A stretch of 64,000 bases of DNA from Chloroflexota bacterium (GCA_031400455.1 JANNPX010000029.1:464-64463); one strand, 5' to 3'. Counted from the first letter of the stretch, positions 9,211 through 64,000 are shown. Notes: generated by a model not told the origin, from the letters alone. Translations and numbers: made by a program.

Positions 9211-10335
9211 TCACGCTGAGGAGTCCCAGGACTTCAGGGTGGCGGTTACTTCTGTATCTTCGCCGTCCCGGTGGATGGTGATGATCACCTTGTCGCCGAC
9301 GGCTTTGGTGTCGATGTAGTCGGCGAGATCGTCGAAGGTCTTCGTCGTGTTGCCGTCGAGGGCGACGATGACGTCGCCGGTGCCGTCGGTAGCGCCGCGG
9401 ATGCCGGCCTGGCCCGCGCCGCTGCCGCTATCGACGGACGCGACGGCGACGCCGTGCTCGATGCCGAGCGTCCTGAGTTCCGCGGGCGTCAGCGTCTTGC
9501 CGGAGATGCCGAGGCGGGCGTGGGTGATCGTCTCGCCGCCGGTGAGCTGCGTGAGGTAGCGCTTCGGCGTGTTGATCGGCACGGCGTACCCGACGCCGGC
9601 GAACGAGTCGGCGCCGCTTGGATTCTCGATGGCGGTGTTGATGCCGATGACTTCGCCCTGCATGTTGATCAGCGCGCCGCCGGAGTTGCCGGGGTTGATG
9701 GCGGCGTCGGCCTGCAGCAAGCCGCGCAGTGGCCGTCCGTTGGCGCTCGACGTGAGCGTGCGGTCGAGGCCGCTGATGACGCCGGTCGTGAAGGTGCCTT
9801 CCAGGCCGAACGGGTTGCCGATGGCGGCGATGACGGAACCGACCTTCACGAGGCTGGAGTCGCCGAGCGTGGCGGGTTGGAGCAGGCTCGCGTCCGCGTC
9901 GGTCTTGACGACGGCGGTATCGTCACCGGGATCCTTGCCGATGACATCGGCGCTGGCGGTGCTGCCGTCCGAGAAGGTGATGGTGACGGTGTCGAAGCCG
10001 TTGACGACGTGGTAGTTCGTCAGGATGTGGCCTTCCTTGTCGAGCACGATGCCGGAGCCGAGGCCGCCGCCCTGACCGCGGACGGTAGAGCCGGCGGCGC
10101 TGCCGGTCGTGATGAGCACGATGGAGGGGCGAACCTTGTCGTAGAGCGCAGTAAAGTCGTCGTTGGACGTTAGCGGCGCGCCCGGCGATCCGCTGGTGTT
10201 CACCTGGCCGGAGGTGGTGGCCGGCGCGACGGTTGCGCTGTTCGTGCTGCCGCCGTCGTCGCGGGCCCAGACGACGCCGCCGACGATGGCGGCGCCGGCG
10301 AGTACGCCGAGCAGTCCTGTCGTGAATGATTTCAT
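9211..10335 (-). CDS. htrA: HtrA/DegP-family trypsin-like serine protease with PDZ domain, secreted
   Basis: Signal/TM N-terminus, catalytic triad contexts HILTNYHV, DTAVVK and GNSGGAL, and a C-terminal PDZ domain. Confidence 0.85.
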   Translation of the reverse strand: MKSFTTGLLGVLAGAAIVGGVVWARDDGGSTNSATVAPATTSGQVNTSGSPGAPLTSNDDFTALYDKVRPSIVLITTGSAAGSTVRGQGGGLGSGIVLDKEGHILTNYHVVNGFDTVTITFSDGSTASADVIGKDPGDDTAVVKTDADASLLQPATLGDSSLVKVGSVIAAIGNPFGLEGTFTTGVISGLDRTLTSSANGRPLRGLLQADAAINPGNSGGALINMQGEVIGINTAIENPSGADSFAGVGYAVPINTPKRYLTQLTGGETITHARLGISGKTLTPAELRTLGIEHGVAVASVDSGSGAGQAGIRGATDGTGDVIVALDGNTTKTFDDLADYIDTKAVGDKVIITIHRDGEDTEVTATLKSWDSSA

Positions 10336-10353
10336 TTACGGTCTCCGTTAGCG

Positions 10354-10383
10354 GTCAGCTAGTCAGCCTGTCAGCTAGTCAGC
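10354..10383. repeat. Tandem direct repeat GTCAGCTAGTCAGC x2 (2-nt spacer) 19-48 nt upstream of the htrA start
   Basis: Read directly: gtcagctagtcagc ct gtcagctagtcagc. Confidence 0.6.
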
Positions 10384-10504
10384 GGGTCGGTCCGTTTGCC
10401 GGCCGTCGCTGCAGTGCTCACTCAGTATGTCGGTTCGGTCGAGGTGATCGTGCTTCAAACATGTTACGCGGCGCGGCGGCGTGGGGATTCCGGCGCAGAA
10501 AGTG

Positions 10505-10534
10505 GAAGAGCCACGCGGGCACACGTGGCTCTTC
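10505..10534. promoter_or_regulatory. Perfect 11-bp-stem hairpin (GAAGAGCCACG / CGTGGCTCTTC, 8-nt loop) in the 620-nt htrA upstream region
   Basis: Read directly. No adjacent U-tract, so it is not an obvious terminator. Confidence 0.35.
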
Positions 10535-10957
10535 GAGGGAGGGTTGATCCGCCATCGCAGCGGACCGGGCCGAGGGAGACTTAGGGACCGGCGTCTCGCC
10601 GTGGCACCGCGTGCCGTTGGGCGCCCGTCGCGAACCGGGAGAACATCGCGAAGCGGGATGGTTGCGGCGCCGTTGGAGGACGCTGCGTTGCCGGTCGGAG
10701 ATCCGCCGAAGCGGAACTCTGAGCACTGCGCTGAGGGCTGCGTACCCGGAAGGTCCGCTTGCTCACTCGCTCCAGCCGTACGCCGTTGCTCATGGGTGCA
10801 GAGTAGGCGGGCGTCGTTATTGGCGGATGAACGGAGGTTATCGGGAGGTTAAACCTGCGGTAGCGTTATAGCCTCGTAGCTATGCCCCTGAACGTAGACG
10901 GGCGAGTTAACGACGATTCGACGTAGCTCGTTGCAAAACTCGGTCTCCAAAGTTGGT

Positions 10958-11407
10958 CTAAGGCCCGGTGTTCGAGCCGGGGCATTTCGAGCTGTCAACA
11001 TGAAACTGCTGCTGGAAGGCGCTGCACCACTCGGCCCATTTGTTGTTATAGACGCCTGCCGCAGCCAGCACGGCGTCATCGGTTCTACAGATGTCTCTTG
11101 CCTCGGCAAAACGATCCGCCGTGGTAGCCAGTTGGTTGCCAAGTTGTACGTGTAGCTCGGCGATTTCCGGTGGTGCCGTAACCTTGAGCCACGTTCGGGC
11201 AGCCTCTCGCATGGCTACCACGATCTCGGAGCAAGTGGCCGCCGTCGTATCGAGCTTGGTGCGTGGATCTCCGGCTGATTGTGTCTGTATGGCGTCCACA
11301 TAGCTGGTCGCATTTGAGTGCGATGAGGCACAGCCTGAAACGGCCACTAACAATCCGATGCCTAGCAGAACCGCCCGTGTGAACTTCACAGCAATAGTAT
11401 CGGCCAA
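10958..11407 (-). CDS. Small lipoprotein (lipobox VSGCASS), hypothetical
   Basis: Signal peptide plus lipobox, with several Cys in the mature part. Lower-GC region. The annotated TTG start overlaps the upstream hairpin element, so the true start is probably a few codons in. Confidence 0.5.
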   Translation of the reverse strand: MADTIAVKFTRAVLLGIGLLVAVSGCASSHSNATSYVDAIQTQSAGDPRTKLDTTAATCSEIVVAMREAARTWLKVTAPPEIAELHVQLGNQLATTADRFAEARDICRTDDAVLAAAGVYNNKWAEWCSAFQQQFHVDSSKCPGSNTGP

Positions 11408-11440
11408 AAGCCCCCCTATTCGGGGGCCTCGTCGGTATCA
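11401..11440 (-). repeat. Copy 1 of a ~35-nt hairpin element (GAGGCCCCCGAATAGGGGGC-TTTTGGCCGATAC on the gene strand)
   Basis: cggccaaaagcccccctattcgggggcctcgtcggtatca. The stem is GCCCCC/GGGGGC. Confidence 0.6.
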
Positions 11441-11465
11441 GTGCTGGTAGCCCGTCGCGCAACTC

Positions 11466-11837
11466 CTAACGGAATTCCCCCGCCGTACAACTGGCGCCGG
11501 TTTCGGTTACAACAACAGGCTGGTCGCGCTTTACTCTGTCCCAATTGCAATCGACACTGGTGCTATCGCTTCTTATGATGGCGAAACGATGGCCGGAGAA
11601 CCACCACCGGCACCAGCGCGGCAGTGTAAAGCTCCCGGCCGAATGGGCGCCGATCTCGTCTAGGCAGTCCGCCTCGCTGCCGGTGAAACCGACGGATACG
11701 CTGTGACTGGATTCATTGCGAATCGCAGCCTTCTCTACCGTCACATGGGTCCACCAGGTGCAGACGCCAACCGCGCAAGTGGCGGCGAACAACATCGCCG
11801 CGAAGGCAACTGGCTTGGGCTTTAGGAATCTTGGCAC
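11466..11837 (-). CDS. Small secreted/membrane-anchored 4-Cys protein, paralog A
   Basis: 123 aa with an N-terminal TM/signal. Shares the motifs DCxWD and VVVTETGASC with the divergent gene at 12028 (DCDWD, IVVTDSGPDC). GTG start. Confidence 0.5.
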   Translation of the reverse strand: MPRFLKPKPVAFAAMLFAATCAVGVCTWWTHVTVEKAAIRNESSHSVSVGFTGSEADCLDEIGAHSAGSFTLPRWCRWWFSGHRFAIIRSDSTSVDCNWDRVKRDQPVVVTETGASCTAGEFR

Positions 11838-11871
11838 ACCCCGATTATCGGCCTTGCCACGCGAAACTTCT

Positions 11872-11917
11872 ATCGGCCACCTGCCCTATTCGGGGGCTCG
11901 TCGTCGGCTCGGCCGGT
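11872..11917 (-). repeat. Copy 2 of the hairpin element
   Basis: tatcggccacctgccctattcgggggctcgtcgtcgg, about 35 nt upstream of the paralog A start. Confidence 0.5.
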
Positions 11918-11988
11918 TAATGCCGCCTCTACGACGCCCAAGGCACAGCGAAACGAAGCTAGCCAGCCGTTTCCCCGTTCCTAGCTTC

Positions 11989-12025
11989 GAGGCCCCCGAG
12001 TAGGGGGCCTTTGGCCGATACTAAG
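11989..12025 (+). repeat. Copy 3 of the hairpin element (opposite orientation, matching the plus-strand gene)
   Basis: cgaggcccccgagtagggggcctttggccgatactaaggc, with a 7-bp perfect stem, immediately before the ATG at 12028. Confidence 0.6.
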
Positions 12026-12027
12026 GC

Positions 12028-12396
12028 ATGACACGATCGGCGCAGGTCGGGTTCGCCGTCATAGTTACCATGCTGGTGGCGGGTGCCGCGCTTCTTCTCT
12101 GGACAGACATCTGGAGAACTAAAACCACTCTCACGATCGAGAATCGAAGCGCCCAAGTCATCAAAGTCGGAATTGGCGACGATGGGATCGGCTGCTGGGA
12201 CAATGAAACAGTTCCCGCCAACACCACTACGCAGGTGACTCTGAAGCTTCATGGTCAGCATATTTTATGCCTTGGCGACGGCATCTATCGTCTGAGCATA
12301 GAGACCGCAAGCGGCCCCCATGATTGCGACTGGGATGCACTTGGCTCTGATCGGACGATCGTTGTCACCGATTCCGGTCCCGACTGTCCGACCTAG
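12028..12396 (+). CDS. Small secreted/membrane-anchored 4-Cys protein, paralog B
   Basis: 122 aa with an N-terminal TM. Paralogous to 11466..11837 (same length, same Cys spacing). Confidence 0.5.
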   Translation: MTRSAQVGFAVIVTMLVAGAALLLWTDIWRTKTTLTIENRSAQVIKVGIGDDGIGCWDNETVPANTTTQVTLKLHGQHILCLGDGIYRLSIETASGPHDCDWDALGSDRTIVVTDSGPDCPT

Positions 12397-12560
12397 GAGT
12401 TTCGCAATGGGCTAAGTAGGACGTTACCTGTTACCGGGTTGCTCGTGACTGGCGTCGGGGCGCGCAGGGGAGAGGCCAACAACGAACCCCTCCCCGCGCT
12501 GCAGGGAGACGGTCGGGCGCACGACGCAGGACACCACTGGAGAACACCGAGGGCGTCGCT

Positions 12561-13505
12561 CTAGATCCGGTCGGTGTTCCAGAAGTGCAGCGGCTCTTCC
12601 TTGAATGCGACCCCGATTGCCGGATCGTCGCCGAAGACCAGCACCATCATCGGATAGCGGAACGTCGGCTGCTCGACGGTCGCAGGCAGGGTGCGGAGAG
12701 CCGTCGATAGCGGGTGATCGTCGGGCGAGAGCGCGACGATGCTTTCGCCGTGCGACTGGGCGCGGCGGCCGGTTGCCGCGAGCAGCGACGCGATGGCCCC
12801 CTGGTGGCCGGGGAGGCATTCGGCTTCGAGGATCTGGTGGCCGTATGGGCGGCAGCGCGAGCGGAGGTAGGCGACGGGGAGGCCGGTGCGTTCGGCGATG
12901 AAGCGTCCGTCCGCGTCTTCGTCGAGCCAGTGGCGCGCGTCTCGCAAGGTGCGGAGCGTCTGCACGACGGCGCCCGTCGTGCCGGCGATTGCGCGGGTGC
13001 GGATCCGGATGATCGCGCGATCGTCCGCTGCGGTCATCGGGCGGATGTCGTAGAGACTAGGCTCCGCGATGGCGGCGGCTTCGCTCGCGTCGGCCTCGAA
13101 ATACGGTTCGCGCACGGTGCGATAGCCGAGGCGCTCGTAGAAGGCGGGGATGCCGGTGAAGAGGAACGAGATCGTCATGCCTTCTCGGCGCAGCTGCTCG
13201 ATGGCGTCACGCATGAGTGCGGTGGCGATGCCGGAGTGACGCGCGTCCGCGTGCGTGGCGACGGAGCCGATGCCGCCGGCGGCAAGCGGTACGCCGCGGA
13301 CGAGCATCGTGCGGGCGAAGATGCGCACGTAGCCGGCGACGCGGCCGTCGACGATGGCGACACGCGCGTGGCGGAGGCGGAACGTCGAGTCGCGTTCCGT
13401 CTGGTTGACGAACATCTGGGGCGCGGCTTCGTCGAAGGCGAGCGCGAGCAGGTCGCAGACTTCGGGCAGCTCGGACTTGCGGGCGGCGCGGATTGTGGGA
13501 TTCAC
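12561..13505 (-). CDS. GNAT-family N-acetyltransferase (Eis-like)
   Basis: An acetyl-CoA-binding core (...RVAGYVRIF...VATHADARHSGIATALMRDAIEQ...) plus a C-terminal extension. GTG start. Confidence 0.6.
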   Translation of the reverse strand: MNPTIRAARKSELPEVCDLLALAFDEAAPQMFVNQTERDSTFRLRHARVAIVDGRVAGYVRIFARTMLVRGVPLAAGGIGSVATHADARHSGIATALMRDAIEQLRREGMTISFLFTGIPAFYERLGYRTVREPYFEADASEAAAIAEPSLYDIRPMTAADDRAIIRIRTRAIAGTTGAVVQTLRTLRDARHWLDEDADGRFIAERTGLPVAYLRSRCRPYGHQILEAECLPGHQGAIASLLAATGRRAQSHGESIVALSPDDHPLSTALRTLPATVEQPTFRYPMMVLVFGDDPAIGVAFKEEPLHFWNTDRI

Positions 13506-51007: not shown

Positions 51008-52672
<1,665 letters not shown>

Positions 52673-52696
52673 CGCGAGTTGCCCAAACGACCTGAG

Positions 52697-53533
52697 CTAG
52701 CTCATGGGCGTGCCGCCGGTGACGTTCAGTGTCTGCCCGGTAATCCACGCGGCATCGTTTGACGCGAAGAACGCCACGGCCCCGGCGATATCCGCCGGCG
52801 TGCCCTGACGCCCCAGCGCGATCGTCTGCACGACCGCCTTCTTCAGGGCGCCGGCATCGGCGTGGAAGCGCGCTGCCATGTGGTCGAACGTGCCGTCCAT
52901 CATGTCCGTATCGACGGAACCCGGTGCGATGCAGTTCACCGTGATCTGATGCGGCGCCGCTTCGAGTGCGAGCATCTGGGTGAGGCCGACGACGCCCCAT
53001 TTCGTTGCGCAATAGGCGCCATACTGCGGGTACGCCGTTCGCCCCGCCGCTGACGAGATGTTGATGATTCGGCCACCGCGTCCGGCTTCGACCATCTTGC
53101 GCATCGCGCGGCTGGTAAGCAGAAACACGCCGTTGAGGTTCACGTCGACCACCTCGTACCATTCGCGGTCGTCGATCTCCCAGAGATTCTTCTCGCCGCA
53201 GTAGGCAAGCCCGGCGTTGTTCACGACGATGTCGATGCGGCCGAACTTCGCCATCGTTTCGGCGACGACGCGATCGACATCCGCGGCGTTCGTCAGGTCG
53301 GCATCGATGCCGATCGCGGCGCCGCTGGCGGCCTCGATCTCGGTGGCGACCGATCCGGCGCCGCGCCAGCCGATCGCTTTCTCGTCGTCCGGGTACTGTT
53401 CTGGTGCGCGCGGCGACCCAAGCGCGACGACGCGAGCCCCTTGAGCGGCAAGTGCCAGCGAGATACCGCGGCCGATTCCGCGATAGCGTGCTGCGCCGCT
53501 GACGATCGCGACCTTGCCTTGGAGTGACGACAT
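52697..53533 (-). CDS. Short-chain dehydrogenase/reductase (SDR)
   Basis: MSSLQGKVAIVSGAARYRGIGRGISL (TGxxxGxG-like), ...NNAG..., and the catalytic YxxxK (YCATK). AAAGGAG SD before the ATG at 53533. Confidence 0.8.
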   Translation of the reverse strand: MSSLQGKVAIVSGAARYRGIGRGISLALAAQGARVVALGSPRAPEQYPDDEKAIGWRGAGSVATEIEAASGAAIGIDADLTNAADVDRVVAETMAKFGRIDIVVNNAGLAYCGEKNLWEIDDREWYEVVDVNLNGVFLLTSRAMRKMVEAGRGGRIINISSAAGRTAYPQYGAYCATKWGVVGLTQMLALEAAPHQITVNCIAPGSVDTDMMDGTFDHMAARFHADAGALKKAVVQTIALGRQGTPADIAGAVAFFASNDAAWITGQTLNVTGGTPMS

Positions 53534-53561
53534 TGAGGGCTCCTTTGTTCGTACGTACGAG

Positions 53562-54527
53562 TTAGTGCGAGTGCAGGTGAAGGCCGGTGTCGGCGGGCGG
53601 GACGATGACCCCGCCGCGCTCCATGATGCCGGGCTCATCCGGATCAACGTGGATGCTGATCGTGGCGCCGGGCACGCTTGATTGCAGGTCCGCTTCGAAG
53701 TGCTCGACCAACAAGTGCGCTTCGCTCACGGAGAGCGCCGGGTCTACGAGTACGTGCACGTCAATGTAGGTCTCGCGTCCAGACTTGCGAGTGCGCAGTG
53801 CGTGGTAGCCGCGCATGCCGTGCGCTTCATGCGACAGGCATTCCTCGATGAGCCGGACCGTCGCTTCCGGTAGCGCAGAGTCAGTGAGTTCGCGTAGCGC
53901 GTTGCGCACGATGGCCGCTGCTGTCCAGGTGAGGAACGCCGCCAGCAGCAGCGCGACGATCGGGTCGAAGATGTGCTTGCCGGTGATGCCGACGAGCACC
54001 AGTCCGGCGCCGATGGCGACGGCCTGCACGACGTTCGTCATCAGGTGCCGGGCGTCGGCGGCGATAGCGACCGAGCCGCTGATGCGTGCGGCGCGGCGCG
54101 AATAGGCGGCGACGCCGAGGTTCACGACGGCAGTGATGCCAATGGCAATGAGCGACGGCACGACGACGATCTCGACGTCGTCCGCCAACGCGCGCCGAAT
54201 CGCTGCGAAGGCGATGAACACGGCGCCGGCTGCGATCAGCCCCGCCTGCGAGATGGCGGCGAGGCTCTCCGCCTTCCCGTGGCCGTATGGGTGCTCCTCG
54301 TCGGCTGGCTGGAGCGCCATCCGCACGGTGATGAACGCGAGCGCCGACGCCAGCAGATCCTCCGCGCTGTCGACGCCGTCACCGAGCAGCGCGATCGAGC
54401 CGAACGCTAGGCCGAACCCGACCTTCAGCGCCATCAGCACGGCGTTCGATGCGAGCGACAGCATCGCGGCGCGGCTTGCGATGTCTGCCGGGATGATGCG
54501 GCGTTGGGTGGCGGCAGTGGTGGGCAT
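53562..54527 (-). CDS. Cation diffusion facilitator (CDF) family metal efflux transporter
   Basis: Six TM helices with ...HPYGHGKAESLAA..., and a C-terminal cytoplasmic domain with a His-rich end (HLHSH). Confidence 0.8.
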   Translation of the reverse strand: MPTTAATQRRIIPADIASRAAMLSLASNAVLMALKVGFGLAFGSIALLGDGVDSAEDLLASALAFITVRMALQPADEEHPYGHGKAESLAAISQAGLIAAGAVFIAFAAIRRALADDVEIVVVPSLIAIGITAVVNLGVAAYSRRAARISGSVAIAADARHLMTNVVQAVAIGAGLVLVGITGKHIFDPIVALLLAAFLTWTAAAIVRNALRELTDSALPEATVRLIEECLSHEAHGMRGYHALRTRKSGRETYIDVHVLVDPALSVSEAHLLVEHFEADLQSSVPGATISIHVDPDEPGIMERGGVIVPPADTGLHLHSH

Positions 54528-54553
54528 CGCGCTCAGGATACGGCGGCAGCGGC

Positions 54554-55486
<933 letters not shown>

Positions 55487-55505
55487 GCGCGCCGCGGGGG
55501 GATCG

Positions 55506-56789
55506 TCATGAGACCGCGGCTCGCTCGCGGACGGGCTCCGGGCGGCGTGGGAACGGACGGTCGTGCTTGTCGATCTCCTCTTGCTCATTCGCCTCGGCGC
55601 GGCTCCAGAGGGCGAGCGCGGCGAACCCGAACACCGCGGTGAGTATTCCGAACATGAGGAAGACCGCGCGCAGGCCCCAAACATCGGCGACGATGCCGCC
55701 CAGCGGCTGGACGCCGGCGAAGATGATGTTCGCGACGACGGCTTGCACGGAAAGAATCGTCGCGCGGCGCTCGCTGGGGATGCGCTTGTTGATGTACGTC
55801 GCGAGCAGCGGGTTTTGCATGCCGGCCGACACACCCATGCCGAGGAACGCGACGAAGATCCACGAGCGGTCGATGCCGGCGAGCGCGAAGCTGCACAGCA
55901 TCAGCAGCACCGGCATCGCGAAGAATGCGCTGCGCTGGCCGACGCGCGTCAGGAACTGATGCGCCAGCAGCGCGGAGACGATGCCCGCGCCGCGCACCGG
56001 CGCTTGCCACAGTCCCAGGTCGCCGGTCGTGACGCCGTGATCGCTGAGGAAGGGCTGCTGGAACACCATCGGCCCGAAGGCGGCCGCGGAGATCACACCG
56101 CTGTACAGGATGATGTACCGCAGCGAGGGCAGCTTCCACGCGTCGTGGATGCCGGAGAAGAGTGTCTGGAAGTAGCGCTCGTGCGTCTCCTCCTGCTCGT
56201 GCCTTGGCTCGTGCATCGAGAACGCGATGGGCGTGGCGATCGCCGCGATCACGGCGCTCACGATGATCACGGAGGAGTAGTCGGTGAGCTCCGCCAGTGG
56301 CGCGCCCAGCAGGATCGCGCACAGCGCTGCGCCGGATCGTAGCGCCCAGAGGCGGCTATTGATGCGCTGGAAGTCCTCCTCGCGGTCGACTTGCTTGAGG
56401 CTGTCGTAGAGCAGCGCGGTGTCGGAGCCCGATTGGAACGTGAGCGCGAGCCCCCACGCGGTGTAGGAGAGCAGGATGATGGCGTAGTTGTCCGCGATGG
56501 CGAAGATGAACAGCGCCAGGGCGAAGAGCGAGCTTCCGAGCATCAGCGACCAGCGGCGCCCGAAGCGGTCGGCGACGGCGCCCGTCGGCACCTCGGCGAA
56601 CACCATCAGCAGGAAGAACGGCGTATCCAGCACCGTGATCTGGGTGAGCGAGAGCCCGCGCTTCACCTGCAGGTACACGACCCAGATGGGCAGCCAGAGC
56701 TGGAACTCCATCAGGAAGCGGTAGACGTACGACTTCCAGACGTTGGATTCGTACCCCATGTCGTCGCGGATGCGGGCGAGCAGATCCAT
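55506..56789 (-). CDS. MFS transporter
   Basis: Twelve predicted TM helices. ...VADRFGRRWSLMLGS... MFS motif A. Confidence 0.75.
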   Translation of the reverse strand: MDLLARIRDDMGYESNVWKSYVYRFLMEFQLWLPIWVVYLQVKRGLSLTQITVLDTPFFLLMVFAEVPTGAVADRFGRRWSLMLGSSLFALALFIFAIADNYAIILLSYTAWGLALTFQSGSDTALLYDSLKQVDREEDFQRINSRLWALRSGAALCAILLGAPLAELTDYSSVIIVSAVIAAIATPIAFSMHEPRHEQEETHERYFQTLFSGIHDAWKLPSLRYIILYSGVISAAAFGPMVFQQPFLSDHGVTTGDLGLWQAPVRGAGIVSALLAHQFLTRVGQRSAFFAMPVLLMLCSFALAGIDRSWIFVAFLGMGVSAGMQNPLLATYINKRIPSERRATILSVQAVVANIIFAGVQPLGGIVADVWGLRAVFLMFGILTAVFGFAALALWSRAEANEQEEIDKHDRPFPRRPEPVRERAAVS

Positions 56790-56879
56790 ACGGGCGAGTA
56801 TATCGAGGCGTATGGCGGGGCTGATAGCGCATGAGGGGCTCCGCGGAGCCCCTCATGTCAATATCGGTGCGTGCTGGTG

Positions 56880-57527
56880 CTAGCGCGGAGCGAAGATGAA
56901 CACGCCCGGCGCGTACGTGTTCGTTGTGCCGACGAAGAGCTGGAGCACAATCGCAAAGACGGCGAATCCAGCGGCGTTCGCGATGAGCACCTTCGCGGGC
57001 GGCGCGTCAGTAGCGGACTGGAGCGCGATCTGCGTCGTGCCGAACGTCAGACCCAGAGCGGCCAGGCCGATGCCGTAGTCGAGACCGGGGATGAACATCG
57101 CGACCATCAACGCCAGCGGCGCCGTAGCGAACCCCATCACGCGTACCAGCTCGTTGACATCGGCGCGCGCGCGAAATATCTGCGTCAGCATGACGTAGGT
57201 GACGCCCATCCAGCCGATCGCCCACACGATGATGGCGAGGATGCTTCCGAGGATGGCGGACTTGAGCAGGAAGTCGCCGGTGTCCGGTGCGTAGTCCTGC
57301 ATCAGGTACCACAGCCAACCGCCGATTCCGGCAAGAAACGTGGCTACCACGACTACCACGATCGCGGGGATCGTGCTGTTCTTGTCGCCTTTTACCTCAT
57401 CGAATACGGTCGTATCGAGCATCGCGAGGCGGCGGAGCCTCTGCATCAGCGAGTTGACATCCATGCCCCCGGCTTTTTCCATCATGGTCCTGCACCTCCT
57501 TGTGACGGCCGTGTCCCGGCCGGACAA
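56880..57527 (-). CDS. Yip1-domain family membrane protein
   Basis: Cytosolic N-terminus then five TM helices (...IVVVVVATFLAGIGGWLWYL..., ...ILGSILAIIVWAIGWMGVTYVML...). Start uncertain (several in-frame Met). Confidence 0.5.
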   Translation of the reverse strand: MSGRDTAVTRRCRTMMEKAGGMDVNSLMQRLRRLAMLDTTVFDEVKGDKNSTIPAIVVVVVATFLAGIGGWLWYLMQDYAPDTGDFLLKSAILGSILAIIVWAIGWMGVTYVMLTQIFRARADVNELVRVMGFATAPLALMVAMFIPGLDYGIGLAALGLTFGTTQIALQSATDAPPAKVLIANAAGFAVFAIVLQLFVGTTNTYAPGVFIFAPR

Positions 57528-57601
57528 CGCTGATCCTCCAAACGATCAAACGCCTACCTAATACAACACTTCTACTACACTTCGGGATCCTTGTCTAGTA
57601 C

Positions 57602-57690
57602 TGGGCCGGGGGACCGGGCGTTGGAGGCTGGAGTTTGGGGGTTGGAGATTGGGGTCGGTTCGGCGGTGGGTTCGGATTCTCGGCCGGATG
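57602..57690. repeat. G/T-rich quasi-repetitive tract (TTGGRG units). C/A-rich and G-poor on the rsmG transcript strand
   Basis: ttggaggctggagtttgggggttggagattggggtcggttcggcggtgggttcgg, read directly. 25-115 nt downstream of the rsmG stop. Confidence 0.5.
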
Positions 57691-57715
57691 ATGCGACTCC
57701 AGTCCGCCAGCGCGC

Positions 57716-58429
57716 TCACAGCGGCGATTTCGCCGGAACGCCGGGGCGGCGCGGGTACTCTGCGGGCGTCTCGCGCTGCTTCACGACCGCGACGAGCGTT
57801 TGCGGCGGGCCGGGGATGGCGAGCGGCGCCGTGAACACCTTCCCGCCCAGCACGGACAGTGCGCGAGCCGACGCGGCGATCTCGGCGTCCGCCCGTGAGC
57901 CCTTGGGCGTGACGACGCGGCCGCCGACGCGGGCGAACGGCAGCGTTAGTTCGAGCAGCACGGGCAGCGGCGCGACGGCGCGGGCCACCACCAGGTCGAA
58001 GCGTCCGCGGAGGCTCGGGTCGTGGCCGAGGGTCTCGGCGCGTCCGCAGAGGACGGGCGTATCGGCGAGCGGGAGCGTTTCGACCAGGGCACGGAGGAAG
58101 TCCGCCTTCTTCGCCGTCGCCTCCAGCAGCGAGAGCCGGATACCGGGCCAAACGACCTTCCAGACCGCGCCCGGAAAGCCGGCGCCGGCGCCGACGTCAA
58201 GCACGCTCGAATCGGGGCGCAGCACCTCACGCTCGCGCAGCGCGGCACCGAGCGCGATCGCCTCCAATATGTGGCGGCGTTCCACGACTGCTGGAGTCGC
58301 GTCAGCTACGAGATTCATGCGATCCGACCATTCCGCGAGCAGCGACGTGTAGGCATCGAACTGGCGCAGTTGAGCATCGGTCAGGCGGACGCCGTAAGCG
58401 TCGGATCCGTGCAAAAGCGTGTCGCCCAT
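57716..58429 (-). CDS. rsmG: 16S rRNA (guanine527-N7)-methyltransferase
   Basis: ...VLDVGAGAGFPGAVWKVVWP...RAVAPLPVLLEL... GidB/RsmG signature. Confidence 0.85.
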   Translation of the reverse strand: MGDTLLHGSDAYGVRLTDAQLRQFDAYTSLLAEWSDRMNLVADATPAVVERRHILEAIALGAALREREVLRPDSSVLDVGAGAGFPGAVWKVVWPGIRLSLLEATAKKADFLRALVETLPLADTPVLCGRAETLGHDPSLRGRFDLVVARAVAPLPVLLELTLPFARVGGRVVTPKGSRADAEIAASARALSVLGGKVFTAPLAIPGPPQTLVAVVKQRETPAEYPRRPGVPAKSPL

Positions 58430-58501
58430 GGTCGGATGATAGCAGCGGCGTTTGACGCCCCTTCAAGATCGCGCCTACAATCAGCAGCAGGAGGGGTCTT
58501 T

Positions 58502-59323
58502 ATGGTAGGTGAAGTCGCCGTCGACGCAGAGCCCGTAGAGTTGCAGGATCTCGCGCGTACATATCTCGCTGGGCTTAAGCCCGCAGCGCGAGAGGCAGCG
58601 CAGCCCGAAGTGCTCAAGTTCGTCCGGTGGGTTGGCCCGGAAAAAGACCTCTCGATTATGCGCGCCCATGAGGTGTCGCAGTACGCCGAGAACTTCCCTC
58701 CCTCTGTTTCTGATGCAGCCAAGCGCGCGGATTTTGTCCGTGCGTTTTTGAAGTGGTCGAAAGACAAGGGCATCACGCGCGAGAACCTCGGCACGCACCT
58801 GCGTGTGCGCAAGGCGTCGAAGTCCAGCTCCAACGCGCAGACGATGGAAGAGCAGCCGATCTACCTGACGCGCGACGGTCACGATGCGCTCGTCAAGGAG
58901 TTCGAGTCGCTGAAGGATCGCCGGCCCCTGATTCAGGCCGATTTGGCGCGCGCCATGGCCGACAAGGACTTCCGCGAGAACGCGCCGCTGGACGCCGCCC
59001 GCAACGAGCAGGGCCACCTGGAGGCGCGCATCAAGGACATCGATGCGACGCTGCGCCGTGCCGTCGTGCTCGACCACGGAGCGGAGCATCCCGGCGACGC
59101 CTCGCAGATCGGCGACCTCGTGACGATCAAGGATCTGCGCACCGGCTCGGAGAAGGGCTACACGCTCGTCAACTCCGACGAAGTGCGCTCTGGCGCCGGC
59201 AAGATCTCCATCGCCTCACCAGTAGGCAAGGCTGTCTACGGCCACCGCAGCGGCGAAGAAGTAGAAGTAGAAGCGCCGTCCGGCACGTTCCGCGTGCGGA
59301 TCGAGTCGATCCAGTCGCCGTAG
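58502..59323 (+). CDS. greA: GreA-family transcription elongation factor with a ~110-aa N-terminal extension
   Basis: The C-terminal 160 aa match GreA (...IYLTRDGHDALVKEFESLK..., ...GDLVTIKDLRTGSEKGYTLV..., ...SIASPVGKAVYGH...). AGGAGGGG SD before the ATG at 58502. Confidence 0.7.
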   Translation: MVGEVAVDAEPVELQDLARTYLAGLKPAAREAAQPEVLKFVRWVGPEKDLSIMRAHEVSQYAENFPPSVSDAAKRADFVRAFLKWSKDKGITRENLGTHLRVRKASKSSSNAQTMEEQPIYLTRDGHDALVKEFESLKDRRPLIQADLARAMADKDFRENAPLDAARNEQGHLEARIKDIDATLRRAVVLDHGAEHPGDASQIGDLVTIKDLRTGSEKGYTLVNSDEVRSGAGKISIASPVGKAVYGHRSGEEVEVEAPSGTFRVRIESIQSP

Positions 59324-59352
59324 GTCAGACATAACGCTGCGAATCGATCGAA

Positions 59353-59377
59353 GCCGGCTCAACGAGCCGGTTTTTTC
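59353..59377 (+). terminator. Intrinsic terminator of greA
   Basis: GCCGGCTC-aac-GAGCCGG followed by TTTTTT. Confidence 0.7.
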
Positions 59378-59453
59378 GTTGCGCGCACTTGTCCGGCGAT
59401 GGGCAATCGCGCGTATCATCGCTCCAACGTTGTGTAACGCAGAGGGGGGCATC

Positions 59454-60134
59454 ATGATTCGTCGTTCCATGTTCGCCGTGATCGTTCTGGCCGTCGGCGT
59501 CGTCGCCGGTGTCGGCATCTACCAGTTCCGTCAAGTCGACGCGGCACCGAGCCTGCCCGTCACCATCCAGGACGCGGATGTGGATGCCGATGGCCAGATC
59601 AGCATCCTCGACTTGGCAGGGGCCGCTCGCTATTACGGGCAAGCGGTGCCGAACGTCGCGCGGCCCGTCGCGGAGCAGAACCTCGACGCCAATGGCAACA
59701 TCAAGGTGCATGAACAGGGGGTCGTAGTAGCGACGGTAAAGCGGATGTCACGAGTCATACCTGTCACCACGGCTTTCACCGTGACGTCGGCCGACAATCT
59801 CAATCCGGACTTGATCAGCGGGTGGATCGATGTGAGGGACTGCAAGTATCTCTATTGGTCGTTCGATGCAACATTGTTGGGATCGTTTGCAGGCAATACT
59901 GAGACTGTGGCTGTCTTGATGAGGGCGTCGCTGGATGGCACCACGACGATCTCGACTTCAATCGGAATGGCGAGTCACGGGTGGAATCCGGGTAGTACGC
60001 CGCCTAGGCACTCGTATCTCCCATCAAGCTTCGTCGGCAATGCTCCATACATTCAGCTGGCCGGCTACGTAGATGCCGATGGCGCGCCAGCACCAGTAGA
60101 GGTCGGCATAAGTCTGTTCTGCACGAGCGACTGA
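59454..60134 (+). CDS. Secreted protein with a dockerin-like Ca-binding module plus a ~130-aa domain of unknown function
   Basis: Signal peptide MIRRSMFAVIVLAVGVVAGVGIY. Two dockerin-type repeats, DADVDADGQISILDLAGAARYYGQ and NLDANGNIKVHEQ. AGAGGGGGG SD. Confidence 0.5.
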   Translation: MIRRSMFAVIVLAVGVVAGVGIYQFRQVDAAPSLPVTIQDADVDADGQISILDLAGAARYYGQAVPNVARPVAEQNLDANGNIKVHEQGVVVATVKRMSRVIPVTTAFTVTSADNLNPDLISGWIDVRDCKYLYWSFDATLLGSFAGNTETVAVLMRASLDGTTTISTSIGMASHGWNPGSTPPRHSYLPSSFVGNAPYIQLAGYVDADGAPAPVEVGISLFCTSD

Positions 60135-60159
60135 ATGCGCGGTGCCACGCCTCCACCGT

Positions 60160-60900
60160 CTATTGCGATGTTGTCTGCGCGTTGGCCAGCTCGCGGTGAA
60201 CTTGGTCAACGAAAACCGTCACCAGTTCCGTGAGGTCGTTTCCGCGTCTCAGCCATGGCTCGTCAACGCTGCCCAATACCCTGAGCTGCAATTGCGCGAC
60301 TCGCTCGAGAGACACCTGCGACTGGACTAGCAGGAAATACAGACAGAACCGGAGCGCCCGTTCCTCGAAAAACCCTCCAAAGTGGAGGTAAGTCGTCTCT
60401 GGGTCCCAATGCATCAGCCACCGGAGCCCGCCACCATTCGGGTGCGTGAATTTACTTAGTACGGCATATGTCTCGCGGGCCTTATCGCCGACTAGGCCAC
60501 CGATTTCTTTGAACATCGTTTCGAAGTCTATTGGTGGTTTGGCATTCTCGTGTTCTGGGAGAATGCCGGCGAGCCATCGGCCGCATCTATCAGGCCGAGC
60601 CTCTACGTGACAAGTCGTAGCCCAGTCTTCGAGAGCGCCGCGGCAAAGAGAGAGACTCTGCACTGGATACCCCGTGAGCGCGTCTTCTCTGGCGCGCCAA
60701 AGAGAGTTAAAGGTCCGCACAAGCAGAAGCGACACCAAGAAGTTGAGCCCGCGGTCCTGCGCTCGGCCTGCGAGGGGCGACATTCCGTGGTTGAGATGAA
60801 GTAGTAAGTCGTCAAGCAGCGAGATTTCAGTGGGCATCGCGGCTTCACTTTGCGATCTTATTTGCCGATCCAATGTCTCAACGTCGATTTGTCTCGCCAT
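60160..60900 (-). CDS. Hypothetical protein in a lower-GC region
   Basis: 246-aa ORF from ATG 60900 (AAAGGA SD). About 60% GC in sampled stretches against about 70% elsewhere. No family recognised with confidence. Confidence 0.4.
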   Translation of the reverse strand: MARQIDVETLDRQIRSQSEAAMPTEISLLDDLLLHLNHGMSPLAGRAQDRGLNFLVSLLLVRTFNSLWRAREDALTGYPVQSLSLCRGALEDWATTCHVEARPDRCGRWLAGILPEHENAKPPIDFETMFKEIGGLVGDKARETYAVLSKFTHPNGGGLRWLMHWDPETTYLHFGGFFEERALRFCLYFLLVQSQVSLERVAQLQLRVLGSVDEPWLRRGNDLTELVTVFVDQVHRELANAQTTSQ

Positions 60901-61430
60901 CGGCGGTCGTCCTTTCGGCGAACTAGTCGCGAGCCGCGGCAGCCACGTTCGGAAGCCAGAAGGATGTCGCGGCGTTCCAGAGCGCGGGAGTGCGGCTGTG
61001 CGTTTCAAGATACACATGCGACGCCGCTCAATGAGGTGATGTCCCACGTTGCGGCAGCTAAGGCAGAATTGAACTGCGACTACGCCGCGAAGGGCGGGCC
61101 GATCGGCGACGAGCCGACACGAACCGACGCGATAGCCAGACTGGCGAAGTTGCTGGCAATTCCCGCCCGCCTGTCTGCTTCCCTCACCTCATAGTGATCC
61201 GATGCGGCGCGCCGAGCGGATAGAGGTGTCGGCGAATTCGACCGTCGCGGACAAAGGTCGAATCTGCCGGAGCCGGCTGTCATTCCGAAATACGGCCATG
61301 CGTCCCGCGCTTCGGGGGCCGAATGGGTGTATGAACGGCAACGGAACGGCGAGATGATGAGCGCGTCGAGGGCCACCGGAGCCCCCGGAAGATTAACCAT
61401 GCACAACTGATTCGTTATGGAGGACCCTAC

Positions 61431-62090
61431 GTGAAGCGAAGGACACTCGATTTCATCTTTGCCGGCGGTGGGCTACTGATTGCCGCGCTGCTCGTCATCT
61501 TCGGGCTGGTGATGCAGGACCAGTACGATTTCGCCCAGGACTACGTCAAAACCGAACTCGGGGCGCAGAAGATCACGTTCGCCGCAGAGCCCAAGCCCGA
61601 TGAGATCAGCTGGAAGCCCGAATCGAAGTGCCTGACGGAGAACGCGGGCAAGCTGATGGAAACCGGCAAGCAGGCCGAGTGCTACGCCAGCTATTACATC
61701 GCCCTTCACATGCGGAATTCCGCGAAGGAGGCGTACCCTCCGGGAACGTACAACGACGACACGTACGCGACAATGGGCGCGAAGCGCACCGCCCTACAGA
61801 AGACCTATGACGCGGCGCTGGCGGACAAGGGCGCTACGGATCCAGCGACCGTCGAAGCCAAGAAGCAGCTCGATGCGGCCACAGGCCTGCGGAGCACCTT
61901 CCAGACCGGTGAGACGCTCCGCGGCCTGCTCCTCACGACGTACGGATTCAGCATCTTCGGCGACAAGGCCGGGCTTGCGGCGATGATCTGCTTCATCGCG
62001 GCGGCGCTGATCGCGGTGCTGTCGGCGGCAGGCTTCGTCCATGCCTTCCTGACGTCGCCGGACAAGGTGGTCTTGGGGAGCGGGAAGTAG
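61431..62090 (+). CDS. Two-TM membrane protein with a Cys-containing extracytoplasmic domain, hypothetical
   Basis: GTG start after GGAGG. N- and C-terminal TM helices. Confidence 0.5.
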   Translation: MKRRTLDFIFAGGGLLIAALLVIFGLVMQDQYDFAQDYVKTELGAQKITFAAEPKPDEISWKPESKCLTENAGKLMETGKQAECYASYYIALHMRNSAKEAYPPGTYNDDTYATMGAKRTALQKTYDAALADKGATDPATVEAKKQLDAATGLRSTFQTGETLRGLLLTTYGFSIFGDKAGLAAMICFIAAALIAVLSAAGFVHAFLTSPDKVVLGSGK

Positions 62091-62124
62091 ACGCTGCACA
62101 CGCAGGCGTTCCTGTAACGGCGTC

Positions 62125-62430
62125 GAACACGCCTCGTGAGTTGGCCGTATGGGCCGCGCACGAGGCGTGTTCGCATCTGGACTACCAACAAGGGTTGCAC
62201 TCGCGCGCTAAAGGGAGGTCGCTTGAGCGATAGGTCGCTTGATTGAGCACACCGAAGGACTGAGAATGCCGTGCGCCCCGTCCTAAGGGCGCAGTGGCGG
62301 GGTGGTCGTACTGACGGAGGCGGGGCCTGAAGTGCGACCGCCCCTTCTTGCCTTTCGGGCAACAAGAAAACTCTCGTAGCGTGGCGGGGAGCGTCCGTGC
62401 TGCCGAACGCAACGCTACGAGAGCATGGGT
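62125..62430. ncRNA. Candidate structured non-coding RNA region (class unknown)
   Basis: Several perfect inverted repeats within about 300 nt: GAACACGCCTCGTG/CACGAGGCGTGTTC (14 bp), CTCTCGTAGCGT/ACGCTACGAGAG (12 bp), TTGCC-tttcg-GGCAA, GGTACT-tct-AGTACC, plus the direct repeat GGTCGCTTGA x2. No plausible ORF. Strand not determined. Confidence 0.3.
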
Positions 62431-62572
62431 ACTTCTAGTACCTATCGCCGACGATTCGCAAGTCGAAACGTACATAACTTCATTACGATCACATTACGCA
62501 AGACTGTAGTGCGTAAATCGATGAGCGATCGTGCTTTGGTTCAGGCTCAGGCGGCGTCGCGGGGCATGACGT

Positions 62573-63223
62573 CTACCGCAGGAACTGGAAGAAGCGCACG
62601 CCCGCCTCGAACGGCGGCGGTTCGGCGGTGAGGCGATGCGACCCGACGCGATAGCTGCGCTCGTCGGATGCGTCGAAGCGCGCCTCCTCGAAGCCGCGTG
62701 CGATGAACCAGCGGCAGATCTCCGGCGCCAGGTCGTCGTCGGGCCTGCCGTAGCGCGTCCAGATCACCGTAGCTCCGGACCCGCACAACATCGGCAGGTG
62801 GTTGATCGTGCGCTCGATGTCCTTGTGGCTGATGTTGCCGAAGATACCGCACGCCAGCAGGATGTCGGCCGGCGGCACTCCGGCGTAGCTGTCGGTCGTC
62901 GACGCGTCGGCGCAGCGCACGCTCACGCCGTCGAGTCCCGCTGCGCGTGCGCTCGTGCGCGCTGCTTCCGCCAGCGCGTCGTCCAGCTCGACGAGCACGG
63001 CGGTGACGTCATGGCGTCGCGGATGCTCGGCCAGCACGCCGATCACATCGCGCCCCTGCCCGGCGCACATGCTGGTGATGCGGATCGGCCCCGCCAGCGT
63101 GGCGCGCACGTCCAGCGCCGCGCGCACGTGCGCCTGCACAACGCGCAGCCGCTCCGACAGGCGCGAGTCCGGATCATCGTACGCGGCGTGCCACTGCTGC
63201 CAGTTGGTCGAGGCCTCGGTCAC
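62573..63223 (-). CDS. Class I SAM-dependent methyltransferase
   Basis: GTG start at 63223 preceded by AGGAGC. ...ITSMCAGQGRDVIGVL... (motif I) and ...ADILLACGIFGNI.... The ORF track start at 63436 would overlap tRNA-Cys and is rejected. Confidence 0.6.
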   Translation of the reverse strand: MTEASTNWQQWHAAYDDPDSRLSERLRVVQAHVRAALDVRATLAGPIRITSMCAGQGRDVIGVLAEHPRRHDVTAVLVELDDALAEAARTSARAAGLDGVSVRCADASTTDSYAGVPPADILLACGIFGNISHKDIERTINHLPMLCGSGATVIWTRYGRPDDDLAPEICRWFIARGFEEARFDASDERSYRVGSHRLTAEPPPFEAGVRFFQFLR

Positions 63224-63376
63224 GGGTGCTCCTGGGTGAGACGCATGAATCGGGTTCGCGCGCGAACACACGTAAATCATCGCCGAAGCGGTCGCCTGCA
63301 TGCAATGTGATGGCATCGGCTGCCGATAAAGCACGAAAGCCGCTCGACAGTGAGCGGCTTTCGTATCTGGGAACGA

Positions 63377-63450
<74 letters not shown>

Positions 63451-63520
63451 GTTATTCCGCGGGCCGCTTGAATACGAATCCGCCCGGCGGAACTCGGGCG
63501 GACGCGGTCGAATCTGCATG

Positions 63521-63609
63521 TGGTGCCGAGGAGGAGATTTGAACTCCTACACCCTTGCGGGCACGGCCCCCTCAAGACCGCGTGTCTGCCTATTCCACCA
63601 CCTCGGCGC
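63521..63609 (-). tRNA. tRNA-Leu (anticodon GAG), long variable arm
   Basis: Reverse complement GCGCCGAGGTGGTGGAATAGGCAGACACGCGGTCTTGAGGGGGCCGTGCCCGCAAGGGTGTAGGAGTTCAAATCTCCTCCTCGGCACCA. Anticodon stem CGGTC/GGCCG, loop TTGAGGG. Class II tRNA, closely matching the layout of E. coli tRNA-Leu. Confidence 0.8.
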
Positions 63610-63749
63610 AAGCTGTCGCGTAAGCGCCAGTGCACCAGCAGTATAGTCGGTACTTCTCGCGCCGCAAAACACGCCTCCCCGGTACTATGGTCGCGCCAGC
63701 GAGAGTCGCGCCAGCGAGCGCGCCGCGGCCGTCAGCGAGAGGATCGGGC

Positions 63750-64000
63750 ATGCATCGAACGGTGGCGGCGGCGATTCTTGCGGCGCTCATCGTCGCGGGT
63801 GCGGCGACGTCCGCGTGCGGCCTCATAGGAGGCGCCGGCACGAAGGTCGTGATCCCGGCGGACTACCACACCGCCGACCCGACGTACACGCTGCTCTACA
63901 GCACCATTGGCTACGAGAGCGCGGCGACGAAGCGCGTGCTGATCCGCCAGAACGACACGACCGTCGCGGCCAGCCAGGGCTTTGCCTTCGCCTGGCGTCT
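63750..64000 (+). CDS. Lipoprotein/secreted protein, 5' partial (runs off the window end)
   Basis: GAGAGGA SD, ATG 63750. MHRTVAAAILAALIVAGAATSACG signal plus lipobox. Confidence 0.45.
   Translation, partial: MHRTVAAAILAALIVAGAATSACGLIGGAGTKVVIPADYHTADPTYTLLYSTIGYESAATKRVLIRQNDTTVAASQGFAFAWR

Follow-up and report, generated by a model that had tools for sequence, protein, structure and literature searches.

Composition and variability of the interval between a GreA-like gene and tRNA-Cys in an uncultured Dehalococcoidia genome

Layout and composition of the interval

The subject of this analysis is the interval between the gene of a GreA-like factor and a tRNA-Cys gene in a 64,000-nucleotide stretch of DNA from a Chloroflexota bacterium (GCA_031400455.1 JANNPX010000029.1:464-64463), referred to as the window, which the GreA-like protein places in the uncultured Dehalococcoidia. 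An earlier note, made from the sequence of the window, had described 59.4-63.3 kb as a stretch of lower guanine-plus-cytosine (GC) content that abuts the 3' end of tRNA-Cys and may be an old, decayed genomic island. The relatives used for comparison are metagenome contigs, some of them long-read assemblies with frameshifts. A sister lineage, reached through the gene of a two-transmembrane protein (TM2), is represented by a 215-kb contig (L092) and by a 6-kb contig (L082) that is 98% identical to it. The best explanation of the comparison, held with moderate confidence, is that the interval from GreA to tRNA-Cys is a recombination-prone variable region made of at least four pieces with separate histories, and not one island. 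The features of the region, from rsmG to tRNA-Leu, are the following.

57716-58429, minus strand: rsmG, upstream of the low-GC block
58502-59323, plus strand: GreA-like factor, upstream of the low-GC block
59354-59376, plus strand: intrinsic terminator of the GreA-like gene, a stem CCGGCTC/GAGCCGG followed by T6, read from the sequence
59454-60134, plus strand: dockerin-like protein (dock, 226 amino acids), from Pfam and hydrophobicity
59721-61165, no strand: foreign, lineage-specific cassette of 57.9% GC, from the blastn break against L092/L082, GC at third codon positions (GC3) and tetranucleotides
60160-60900, minus strand: hyp246 (246 amino acids), a cytoplasmic all-alpha protein, probably distantly related to DUF5677
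61058-61146, minus strand: methyltransferase pseudo-fragment of 89 nt, the last ~29 codons, from blastn and hidden Markov model alignment
61166-61430, plus strand: promoter and 5' region of TM2, from conservation in relatives
61431-62090, plus strand: TM2, 219 amino acids with two transmembrane segments, from hydrophobicity, homologues and GC3
62124-62173, plus strand: hairpin with a perfect 15-bp stem, 3' of TM2, conserved in L092, L091, L094 and L097
62187-62572, no strand: orphan insert of 386 nt, 58.3% GC, absent from five relatives
62573-63223, minus strand: S-adenosylmethionine (SAM)-dependent methyltransferase-like gene, 216 amino acids, GTG start, from Pfam and homologues
63335-63376, minus strand: hairpin (63335-63362) and 12-nt flank ATCTGGGAACGA, directly 3' of tRNA-Cys
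63377-63450, minus strand: tRNA-Cys(gca), with its 3' end at 63377 (ARAGORN; Rfam 69.3 bits; conserved in L092)
63521-63607, minus strand: tRNA-Leu(gag) (ARAGORN)

The genes that the earlier note had named are all present, namely the dockerin-like secreted protein, the 246-residue hypothetical protein, the two-transmembrane protein and the SAM-dependent methyltransferase-like gene, as is the structured stretch of about 480 nt free of open reading frames (ORFs) that lies between the last two (62091-62572). Mechanical ORFs in the two long spacers show no excess of GC at third positions and are not credible genes. Searches of the four proteins of the block with NCBIfam, PHROGs and PADLOC gave nothing significant, the weak library matches among them being to a tail-fibre PHROG (E value of 0.087), to AbiEi (E value of 0.04) and to the mad2 methyltransferase domain (E value of 1e-7).

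The GC content is 65.6% for the whole window and 65.8% outside 59400-63300, compared with 61.9% within that interval. The dip is real, but the background of about 70% against which it had been set is too high, and its extent was overestimated. The true low-GC block covers 59330-62572 with 60.0% GC, which is the minimum among all 3.2-kb sliding windows (mean of 65.6%, standard deviation of 1.6%; the block at a z score of about -3.6), and approximately 1 kb of it consists of spacers. The methyltransferase part of the reported interval (62573-63300) has 69.8% GC, which means that the low-GC stretch stops short of tRNA-Cys: the interval first reported does end at the 3' end of the tRNA, but the low-GC stretch does not.

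Codon composition narrows the atypical part further. The GC3 of the background genes is 0.819 ± 0.064, and GreA (0.80) and the N-terminal part of dock (0.80) fall within it. The C-terminal part of dock (0.645, z of -2.7) and hyp246 (0.628, z of -3.0) are low, and TM2 (0.85) and the methyltransferase (0.90) both have native composition; orthologues of TM2 elsewhere have a GC3 of 0.81-0.85. The tetranucleotide distance is maximal at 59.25-61.25 kb (z of about +3) and is at background for 1.5-kb windows that start at or beyond 60.75 kb. When codon-position GC and tetranucleotides are taken together, only 59721-61165 is atypical, the 386-nt insert being also atypical in composition.

Comparison with relatives and a probable exchanged cassette

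In six of the nine closest loci (L002, L005, L006, L007, L008, and L010, with GreA at 75-90% amino acid identity), the genes for MFS, Yip1, RsmG and GreA are collinear with the window; in L003, L004 and L009, RsmG and GreA are the only ones of these seen. An enoyl-CoA hydratase gene lies downstream of GreA in seven of the nine: it adjoins GreA in L002, L004, L007, L008 and L010, and is separated from it by 1.5-3.4 kb of extra DNA in L005 and L009. The hydratase gene is followed in most of these seven loci by an acyl-CoA ligase-like gene. The sequence of L003 stops 0.7 kb beyond GreA, and the genes found there in L006 are different ones. None of the four genes of the block and no tRNA was found in the 0.7-10 kb of sequence available downstream of GreA in L002-L010. 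The extra DNA takes several forms: in L009 a gene for a 755-residue protein stands between GreA and the hydratase, in L005 the same place holds 1.5 kb of degenerate ORFs, and in L006, where about 1.5 kb lies between rsmG and GreA, an ORF of 393 residues (3895-5073) looks transposase-like by inspection only. These extras indicate that the flanks of GreA vary across the clade. The GreA-like factor itself has an N-terminal extension of about 119 residues before its GreA_GreB_N and C-terminal domains; this extension looks conserved, given that matches start within the first ~40 residues in many of 80 Dehalococcoidia/Chloroflexota loci.

The sister lineage (L092/L082) is much closer, with about 85-88% nucleotide identity and amino acid identities of 96% for GreA, 91% for RsmG and 91% for TM2, which occupies the same position. 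L092 is collinear with 51413-64000 of the window, and this collinearity breaks in exactly three places: at 59721-61165, at 62187-62572 and at the 3' end of tRNA-Cys. The spacer between GreA and dock, in which the terminator of the GreA-like gene is located, is conserved and falls within an 8.4-kb collinear block. Between GreA and tRNA-Cys, both contigs keep the order dock, TM2, methyltransferase, and their GC content dips locally as in the window. The earlier note had regarded the same genes in the same place and with similar composition in relatives as a refutation of an island, and this is what the sister lineage has for three of the genes and for the dip, but not for hyp246.

The first break delimits a cassette that holds the C-terminal domain of dock, hyp246 and the methyltransferase pseudo-fragment. 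By blastn, the window aligns with L092/L082 at about 87% identity up to 59720, not at all within the cassette, and again from 61166 onwards. The left boundary comes directly after the most conserved motif of the dock family (...NIKVHEQG), and the right boundary is 265 nt upstream of TM2. Opposite this cassette, L092/L082 carry an unrelated 1.38 kb with a variant dock C-terminus and a second dockerin-like gene. The compositionally foreign DNA therefore coincides with the single segment that is not common to the two lineages.

The dock protein has a single N-terminal hydrophobic segment and is predicted to be secreted or membrane-anchored. It scores 18.9 bits against Pfam Dockerin_1 (PF00404), for which the cut-off is 22.9; the model is matched by 9 of 19 members of the family (best E value of 5.7e-10), and two EF-hand-type loops, DVDADGQISILD and NLDANGNIKVHE, are visible in the sequence. 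In the AlphaFold2 (AF2) model, which has a predicted local distance difference test score (pLDDT) of 70 overall and of 80-89 for the C-terminal domain, this domain is a jelly-roll beta-sandwich with two conserved cysteines, and the Foldseek matches are to jelly-roll capsid and BC2L-C lectin folds (E values of 1e-4 to 4e-3). The family is rare, with 43 representatives among 1.84e9 proteins. The motif RPVAEQNLDxxGNIKVHEQG (59640-59720) is nearly invariant in the family alignment and present as two to three repeats in some members; its pattern is that of an EF-hand loop, and the crossover of the cassette exchange falls here. Beyond it, the C-terminal domains of the window and of L092 share 29% amino acid identity, compared with 91-96% for the flanking genes, and are still homologous, with the cysteines and an LYC motif in common. 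The GC3 is 0.66 for the L092 domain and 0.71 for the second dock gene of L092.

For hyp246, no direct match was obtained in any library searched, and the protein of the window gives no hit to DUF5677 (PF18928). Nonetheless, its family of 35 members appears to be distantly related to this domain, given that 14 of 36 aligned sequences match it (best E value of 4.5e-6). The model is all-alpha and confident (pLDDT of 94), and no specific structural relative of it was found; the four-helix bundle with a catalytic Rx4-6H motif that characterizes HEPN proteins was not seen. Sequence searches of the PDB with hyp246, the methyltransferase and TM2 returned nothing, and dock and hyp246 had no match in viral contigs.

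The genomic surroundings of the hyp246 homologues are indicative of mobile elements. The closest homologues on long contigs, in L086 and L173 (76% identity), each face a tyrosine integrase gene in convergent orientation (L086 90-1757; L173 84-1046, where the integrase is truncated). The two integrases share 85% identity, and L086 carries another integrase and an HTH_17 gene as well. Dehalococcoidia may thus have a family of integrative elements that carry a DUF5677-like gene at one of their ends. Other homologues are found 5 kb from a serine recombinase, beside a PIN/PhdYeFM pair, or in a ParB/DUF87/DUF3768 block. The GC content of the family stays at about 57-60% in loci that span 56 to 70% GC. 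An enrichment of DUF5677 beside serine recombinases has been reported for mobile, defence-rich contigs of Bacillota (bioRxiv 10.1101/2025.10.07.681051).

The third component of the cassette is a stub of a methyltransferase gene, which shares the strand of hyp246 and lies upstream of that gene, at 20 nt from the right boundary of the cassette. Its peptide ...SGYRVGSCRLVADRP... corresponds to RSYRVGSHRLTAEPP of the intact methyltransferase, and by blastn 61083-61136 aligns with 62603-62655 (79.6% over 54 nt, E value of 3e-5); the stub also matches the 3' ends of the methyltransferase genes of L082 and L083. A polymorphic toxin and immunity pair made of dock and hyp246 was considered for the cassette and rejected, given that the two genes are on opposite strands, that the dock C-termini are still homologous jelly-rolls, and that hyp246 occurs without dock elsewhere.

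The tRNA-Cys end and the structured insert

TM2, which has its hydrophobic segments at residues 9-27 and 182-200, belongs to a large family of 3527 homologues, mostly from Chloroflexota. Conservation of its 5' region begins at 61166 in the comparison with L092, at 61279 with L091 and L097, and at 61318 with L094; no conserved RNA structure was found in the leader. The hairpin at 62124-62173 is probably a terminator shared by the two convergent genes. The gene upstream of TM2 differs from contig to contig (L097 1-5490; L094 3024-4301; L091 8536-9684), the neighbours being a protein of more than 1830 residues with YD/RHS-type repeats (by inspection), a 426-residue repetitive protein and a baeRF_family10 protein, which indicates that the upstream side of TM2 is also variable in several lineages.

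The methyltransferase matches Methyltransf_25 (E value of 3.6e-3) and Methyltransf_20 (E value of 2.3e-3), both below the Pfam cut-off. It has 2531 homologues in Chloroflexota and Actinomycetota, many of which carry a precomputed PF12147 or PF13649 and some of which are named SAM-dependent methyltransferase at NCBI; their length of about 216 residues supports the GTG start. The leader of this gene stops 12 nt short of the tRNA-Cys 3' end at 63377, which is the putative attachment site; the low-GC cassette is 2.2 kb away. Both tRNA-Cys and tRNA-Leu are conserved in L092. The tRNA-Leu(gag) was called by ARAGORN and not by the Rfam runs that gave tRNA-Cys; it is probably a real gene, because ARAGORN finds the same tRNA-Leu/tRNA-Cys pair in L092 and L102.

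An indication of integration at this tRNA comes from three other relatives, L091, L094 and L097 (TM2 at 84-88% amino acid identity). These keep TM2 and the terminator with the 15-bp stem, past which, beyond a spacer of 41-55 nt, just 38-86 codons from the 3' end of the methyltransferase gene remain. A decayed copy of the 3' end of tRNA-Cys, in the orientation of the gene and directly past the methyltransferase stop codon, is present in the spacers of L091 and L094 and, as a weak match, in that of L097. The copy matches at 22 of 26 positions in L091 and at 24 of 27 in L094, scores that none of 500 shuffles reaches, and no comparable match of these fragments to tRNA-Leu or tRNA-Glu was found. 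When the last 31 nt of tRNA-Cys with the 12-nt flank were used as blast query against 1.96 Mb of retrieved loci, the two spacers were the best matches after the two true tRNA-Cys genes (E values of 6e-6 and 3e-4). Both alignments run 8-11 nt into the flank, so that in L091 and L094 the flank is duplicated together with the tRNA end. In L094, a Phage_integrase gene (E value of 4.5e-17) lies 40 nt past the methyltransferase remnant.

A complete tRNA at one end and a displaced copy of its 3' part with flanking sequence at the other is the classical footprint of integration at a tRNA 3' end. The DNA bracketed by tRNA-Cys and its repeat is the methyltransferase segment, and this segment is probably all that is left of an old element that had integrated at tRNA-Cys. 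Given that the repeat of the relatives lies between TM2 and the methyltransferase, it is this high-GC segment, and not the low-GC block, that is associated with the tRNA; the partial tRNA-Cys repeat that the earlier note had proposed to look for near 59.4 kb was not found. Neither the window nor L092 has such a repeat there or elsewhere, and in L092/L082 it is cleanly deleted. The best tRNA-like match in the window, 18 of 22 positions at 61105-61126, is within chance and inside the methyltransferase stub, and was rejected. The statement that the window lacks an integrase and a significant repeat of the tRNA end was borne out by profile, tblastn and repeat searches, with no match to Phage_integrase and no remnant detected with three integrases taken from relatives.

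At the third break in collinearity, which falls precisely where the methyltransferase leader meets the 3' end of tRNA-Cys, L092 carries 2.45 kb that the window lacks (L092 11541-13991; also L082 1-2512). Two proteins are encoded there, an enoyl-CoA hydratase extended at its N-terminus and a NosD/beta-helix protein (GC3 of 0.79 and 0.70). A 7-bp repeat, TTTGGAG, flanks this DNA and takes in the terminus of the tRNA. The extra DNA may have survived as cargo of that old element, or may have been inserted separately.

The second break corresponds to 62187-62572, which is absent from L082, L092, L091, L094 and L097. This insert is bounded by a 5-bp CTACC direct repeat, with the methyltransferase stop codon within the right-hand copy, and its position is that of the decayed tRNA-Cys 3' copy in relatives. 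The junction is present in the sister lineage without the 386-nt sequence, so that an insertion in this lineage explains the difference most parsimoniously. The insert, which is strongly self-complementary and itself an outlier in folding, makes up most of the ORF-free stretch 62091-62572, in which no convincing gene and no GC3 periodicity were found and which folds far better than its shuffled versions (z of -4.5 on the plus strand and of -4.3 on the minus strand); 57 background windows of the same length have a mean z of -0.27, with a standard deviation of 1.1 and a minimum of -2.9. Rfam searches with the window, with 59-64 kb and with the insert, at gathering and at E-value thresholds, found tRNA-Cys only; for the insert, the best E values were 0.14-0.18, far below gathering scores. 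No second copy was found in the window, in 172 loci, or in phages, plasmids and viral contigs; no terminal inverted repeats were found, and the similarity to the spacers of the relatives is not significant. That the insert is a new small structured element, either mobile and non-autonomous without inverted repeats or a lineage-specific structured RNA gene, which would target the remnant of the old tRNA-Cys attachment site between two convergent genes, is a doubtful proposition, to which we give a small probability.

Elsewhere in the window, a second patch at about 10.3-12.8 kb has a GC content as low as that of the block studied here (about 59-60%). Its tetranucleotide z (10250-12750, up to 4.6) is stronger than that of the patch at 59.25-61.25 kb. 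It codes for small hypothetical proteins that are lipoprotein-like or membrane-anchored, among them 10958-11407 (minus strand; GC3 of 0.62 over the stop-to-stop frame 10961-11437) and two apparently paralogous proteins of about 122 residues at 11466-11837 (minus strand) and 12028-12396 (plus strand).

Proposed histories of the pieces and alternative explanations

In the explanation that we favor, the pieces would have come together in an order that follows by parsimony from six lineages. What was observed directly is where the segments begin and end, how they are composed, which relatives have or lack them, the tRNA fragment of the relatives and the genes adjacent to integrases; the order and direction of the events, the origin of the methyltransferase segment by integration and the exchange of the cassette by homologous recombination are inferred from these. 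TM2, with its promoter and terminator, would be resident DNA. The methyltransferase segment, from 63376 down to 62573, would be the residue of an old element. On entering the 3' end of tRNA-Cys, this element would have restored the tRNA and displaced the original 3' end, which, together with its flank, would have become a direct repeat beside the TM2 terminator. The integrase and other cargo would later have been deleted here, L092 having kept 2.45 kb more and L094 an integrase, and the repeat would have been lost in the ancestor shared with L092. The self-complementary 386-nt sequence would then have inserted at the old repeat junction in this lineage, with a 5-bp duplication. The segment 59721-61165 would be a recently exchanged cassette, with crossovers after NIKVHEQG and just upstream of the promoter region of TM2, that brought in a new jelly-roll C-terminal domain, the DUF5677-like hyp246 and the methyltransferase stub. 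Homologous recombination may have brought it in from a related genome or element that had a methyltransferase, hyp246 and a dock-type gene side by side; the source was probably an integrase-bearing element in another Dehalococcoidia, with hyp246 directly downstream of the methyltransferase.

Several observations weigh against this sequence of events. The window itself has neither the tRNA repeat nor an integrase, so that the integration history rests on the relatives. In L091, L094 and L097, the methyltransferase is truncated and its far side does not reach tRNA-Cys, and the Rfam tRNA model detects nothing in the spacers of L091 and L094, the 27-nt fragments being too short to score. The composition of the methyltransferase is fully native and other members of its family are not linked to a tRNA. 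No empty tRNA-Cys site was seen among the loci examined. The genes upstream of TM2 differ in every contig, and TM2 may not be the original chromosomal neighbour of the tRNA. Finally, the low GC3 of the dock C-terminal domains in both lineages means that the dip may be partly a property of the gene family.

The idea of the earlier note can be extended to a single old island, or two successive ones, that would occupy the whole of 59.4-63.3 kb at tRNA-Cys, with the 3' end of GreA as its far boundary and with integrase and repeats decayed. The block does abut tRNA-Cys, and such an island would account for the finding that none of dock, hyp246, TM2, the methyltransferase and tRNA-Cys follows GreA in the sequence available for L002-L010 (up to 10 kb), where the hydratase is found in seven of nine loci; the second methyltransferase 3' stub (61058-61146) would suit two tandem units that each end in a methyltransferase. 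Nonetheless, this explanation is unlikely. Native genes separate the low-GC cassette from the tRNA, given that the GC3 of TM2 and of the methyltransferase is native and only 59721-61165 is atypical. The sole tRNA-Cys repeat seen lies between TM2 and the methyltransferase of relatives, the unit made of TM2, repeat and methyltransferase occurs in L091, L094 and L097 without GreA or dock, and the TM2 family is large and vertically distributed. The sister lineage, moreover, keeps three of the genes in the same order with the same dip. What stands of the original idea is accessory DNA and a likely old integration at tRNA-Cys, but not one island over the whole interval.

A rearrangement is suggested by the fact that synteny with L002-L010 stops exactly at the 3' end of GreA, with the expected downstream genes nowhere in the window, and that the neighbours of the TM2-methyltransferase unit are different in other contigs. 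The GreA and the TM2/tRNA-Cys neighbourhoods could have been joined by an inversion or translocation in the ancestor of this lineage and L092. As the only event, with no mobile element, it has little probability, because it leaves unexplained the duplicate of the tRNA-Cys 3' end, the integrase of L094, the integrase-linked hyp246 family and the three differences from the sister lineage; the explanation that we favor would allow it as a further event at an earlier time. It is also improbable that no horizontal transfer took place, with long spacers and fast-evolving genes for secreted proteins under relaxed codon usage producing the dip, and divergence or deletion producing the differences from L092. 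The approximately 1 kb of spacers, the low GC3 of the dock C-termini and of the second dock paralogue of L092 (0.66-0.71), and the homology of the two C-terminal domains at 29% identity with the same cysteines and LYC motif are what would be expected in that case. However, hyp246 is absent from L092/L082, which have another gene in its place, there are two sharp boundaries at which a nucleotide identity of about 87% gives way to none that can be detected, the homologues of hyp246 stand beside integrases elsewhere and keep their own GC content whatever the host, and the cassette contains a foreign methyltransferase stub.

The pieces resemble known systems to different extents. As in tRNA-associated islands and integrative elements (of the P4 type or the integrative and conjugative element type), the methyltransferase segment starts at the tRNA-Cys 3' end and is closed in relatives by a repeat of the last ~27 nt of the tRNA with 8-11 nt of flank, the cargo at the tRNA end varies by lineage, and one relative has a tyrosine integrase at the repeat. 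It differs from them in that the window has no integrase or repeat, the surviving gene is native, the piece is smaller than 1 kb, and the low-GC DNA lies outside the repeat-bounded segment. The cassette is similar to replacement-type flexible islands and to hypervariable surface-protein cassettes: sister lineages carry non-homologous cassettes at the same locus, a conserved coding motif contains one of the crossovers, the swap is limited to the C-terminal binding-type domain and the adjoining gene, and the GC content is lower. However, it is only 1.45 kb long, only two alleles were seen, and the presence in it of an integrase-associated gene and of a pseudogene stub speaks for a mobile element as its source. 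Like DUF5677 (PF18928) genes, the hyp246 family is found beside recombinases, and 14 of 36 members match the model. Dock has two EF-hand-like calcium-loop motifs in common with type I dockerins (PF00404), but it is below the Pfam cut-off, has no evident cohesin or cellulosome context and is fused to a membrane anchor and a small jelly-roll. The insert, which is lineage-specific, non-coding, strongly structured and bounded by a 5-bp direct repeat, is similar in these respects to miniature inverted-repeat transposable elements, other small non-autonomous insertions or small structured RNAs, but it differs in having no terminal inverted repeats, no second copy found and no Rfam family.

The mosaic found between GreA and tRNA-Cys is a well-known and ordinary kind of genome plasticity, and the orphan 386-nt insert is the only item with some potential for novelty. 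The main value of the analysis is a correction: the tRNA-linked remnant and the foreign DNA are different pieces, and the GC dip mixes one real transfer with native genes and spacers. For the uncultured Dehalococcoidia of soil and groundwater, it documents a small recombination hot spot and describes two little-known families, a rare secreted family that combines a dockerin with a jelly-roll and has a cassette-swapped C-terminus, and a DUF5677-like family that travels beside integrases.

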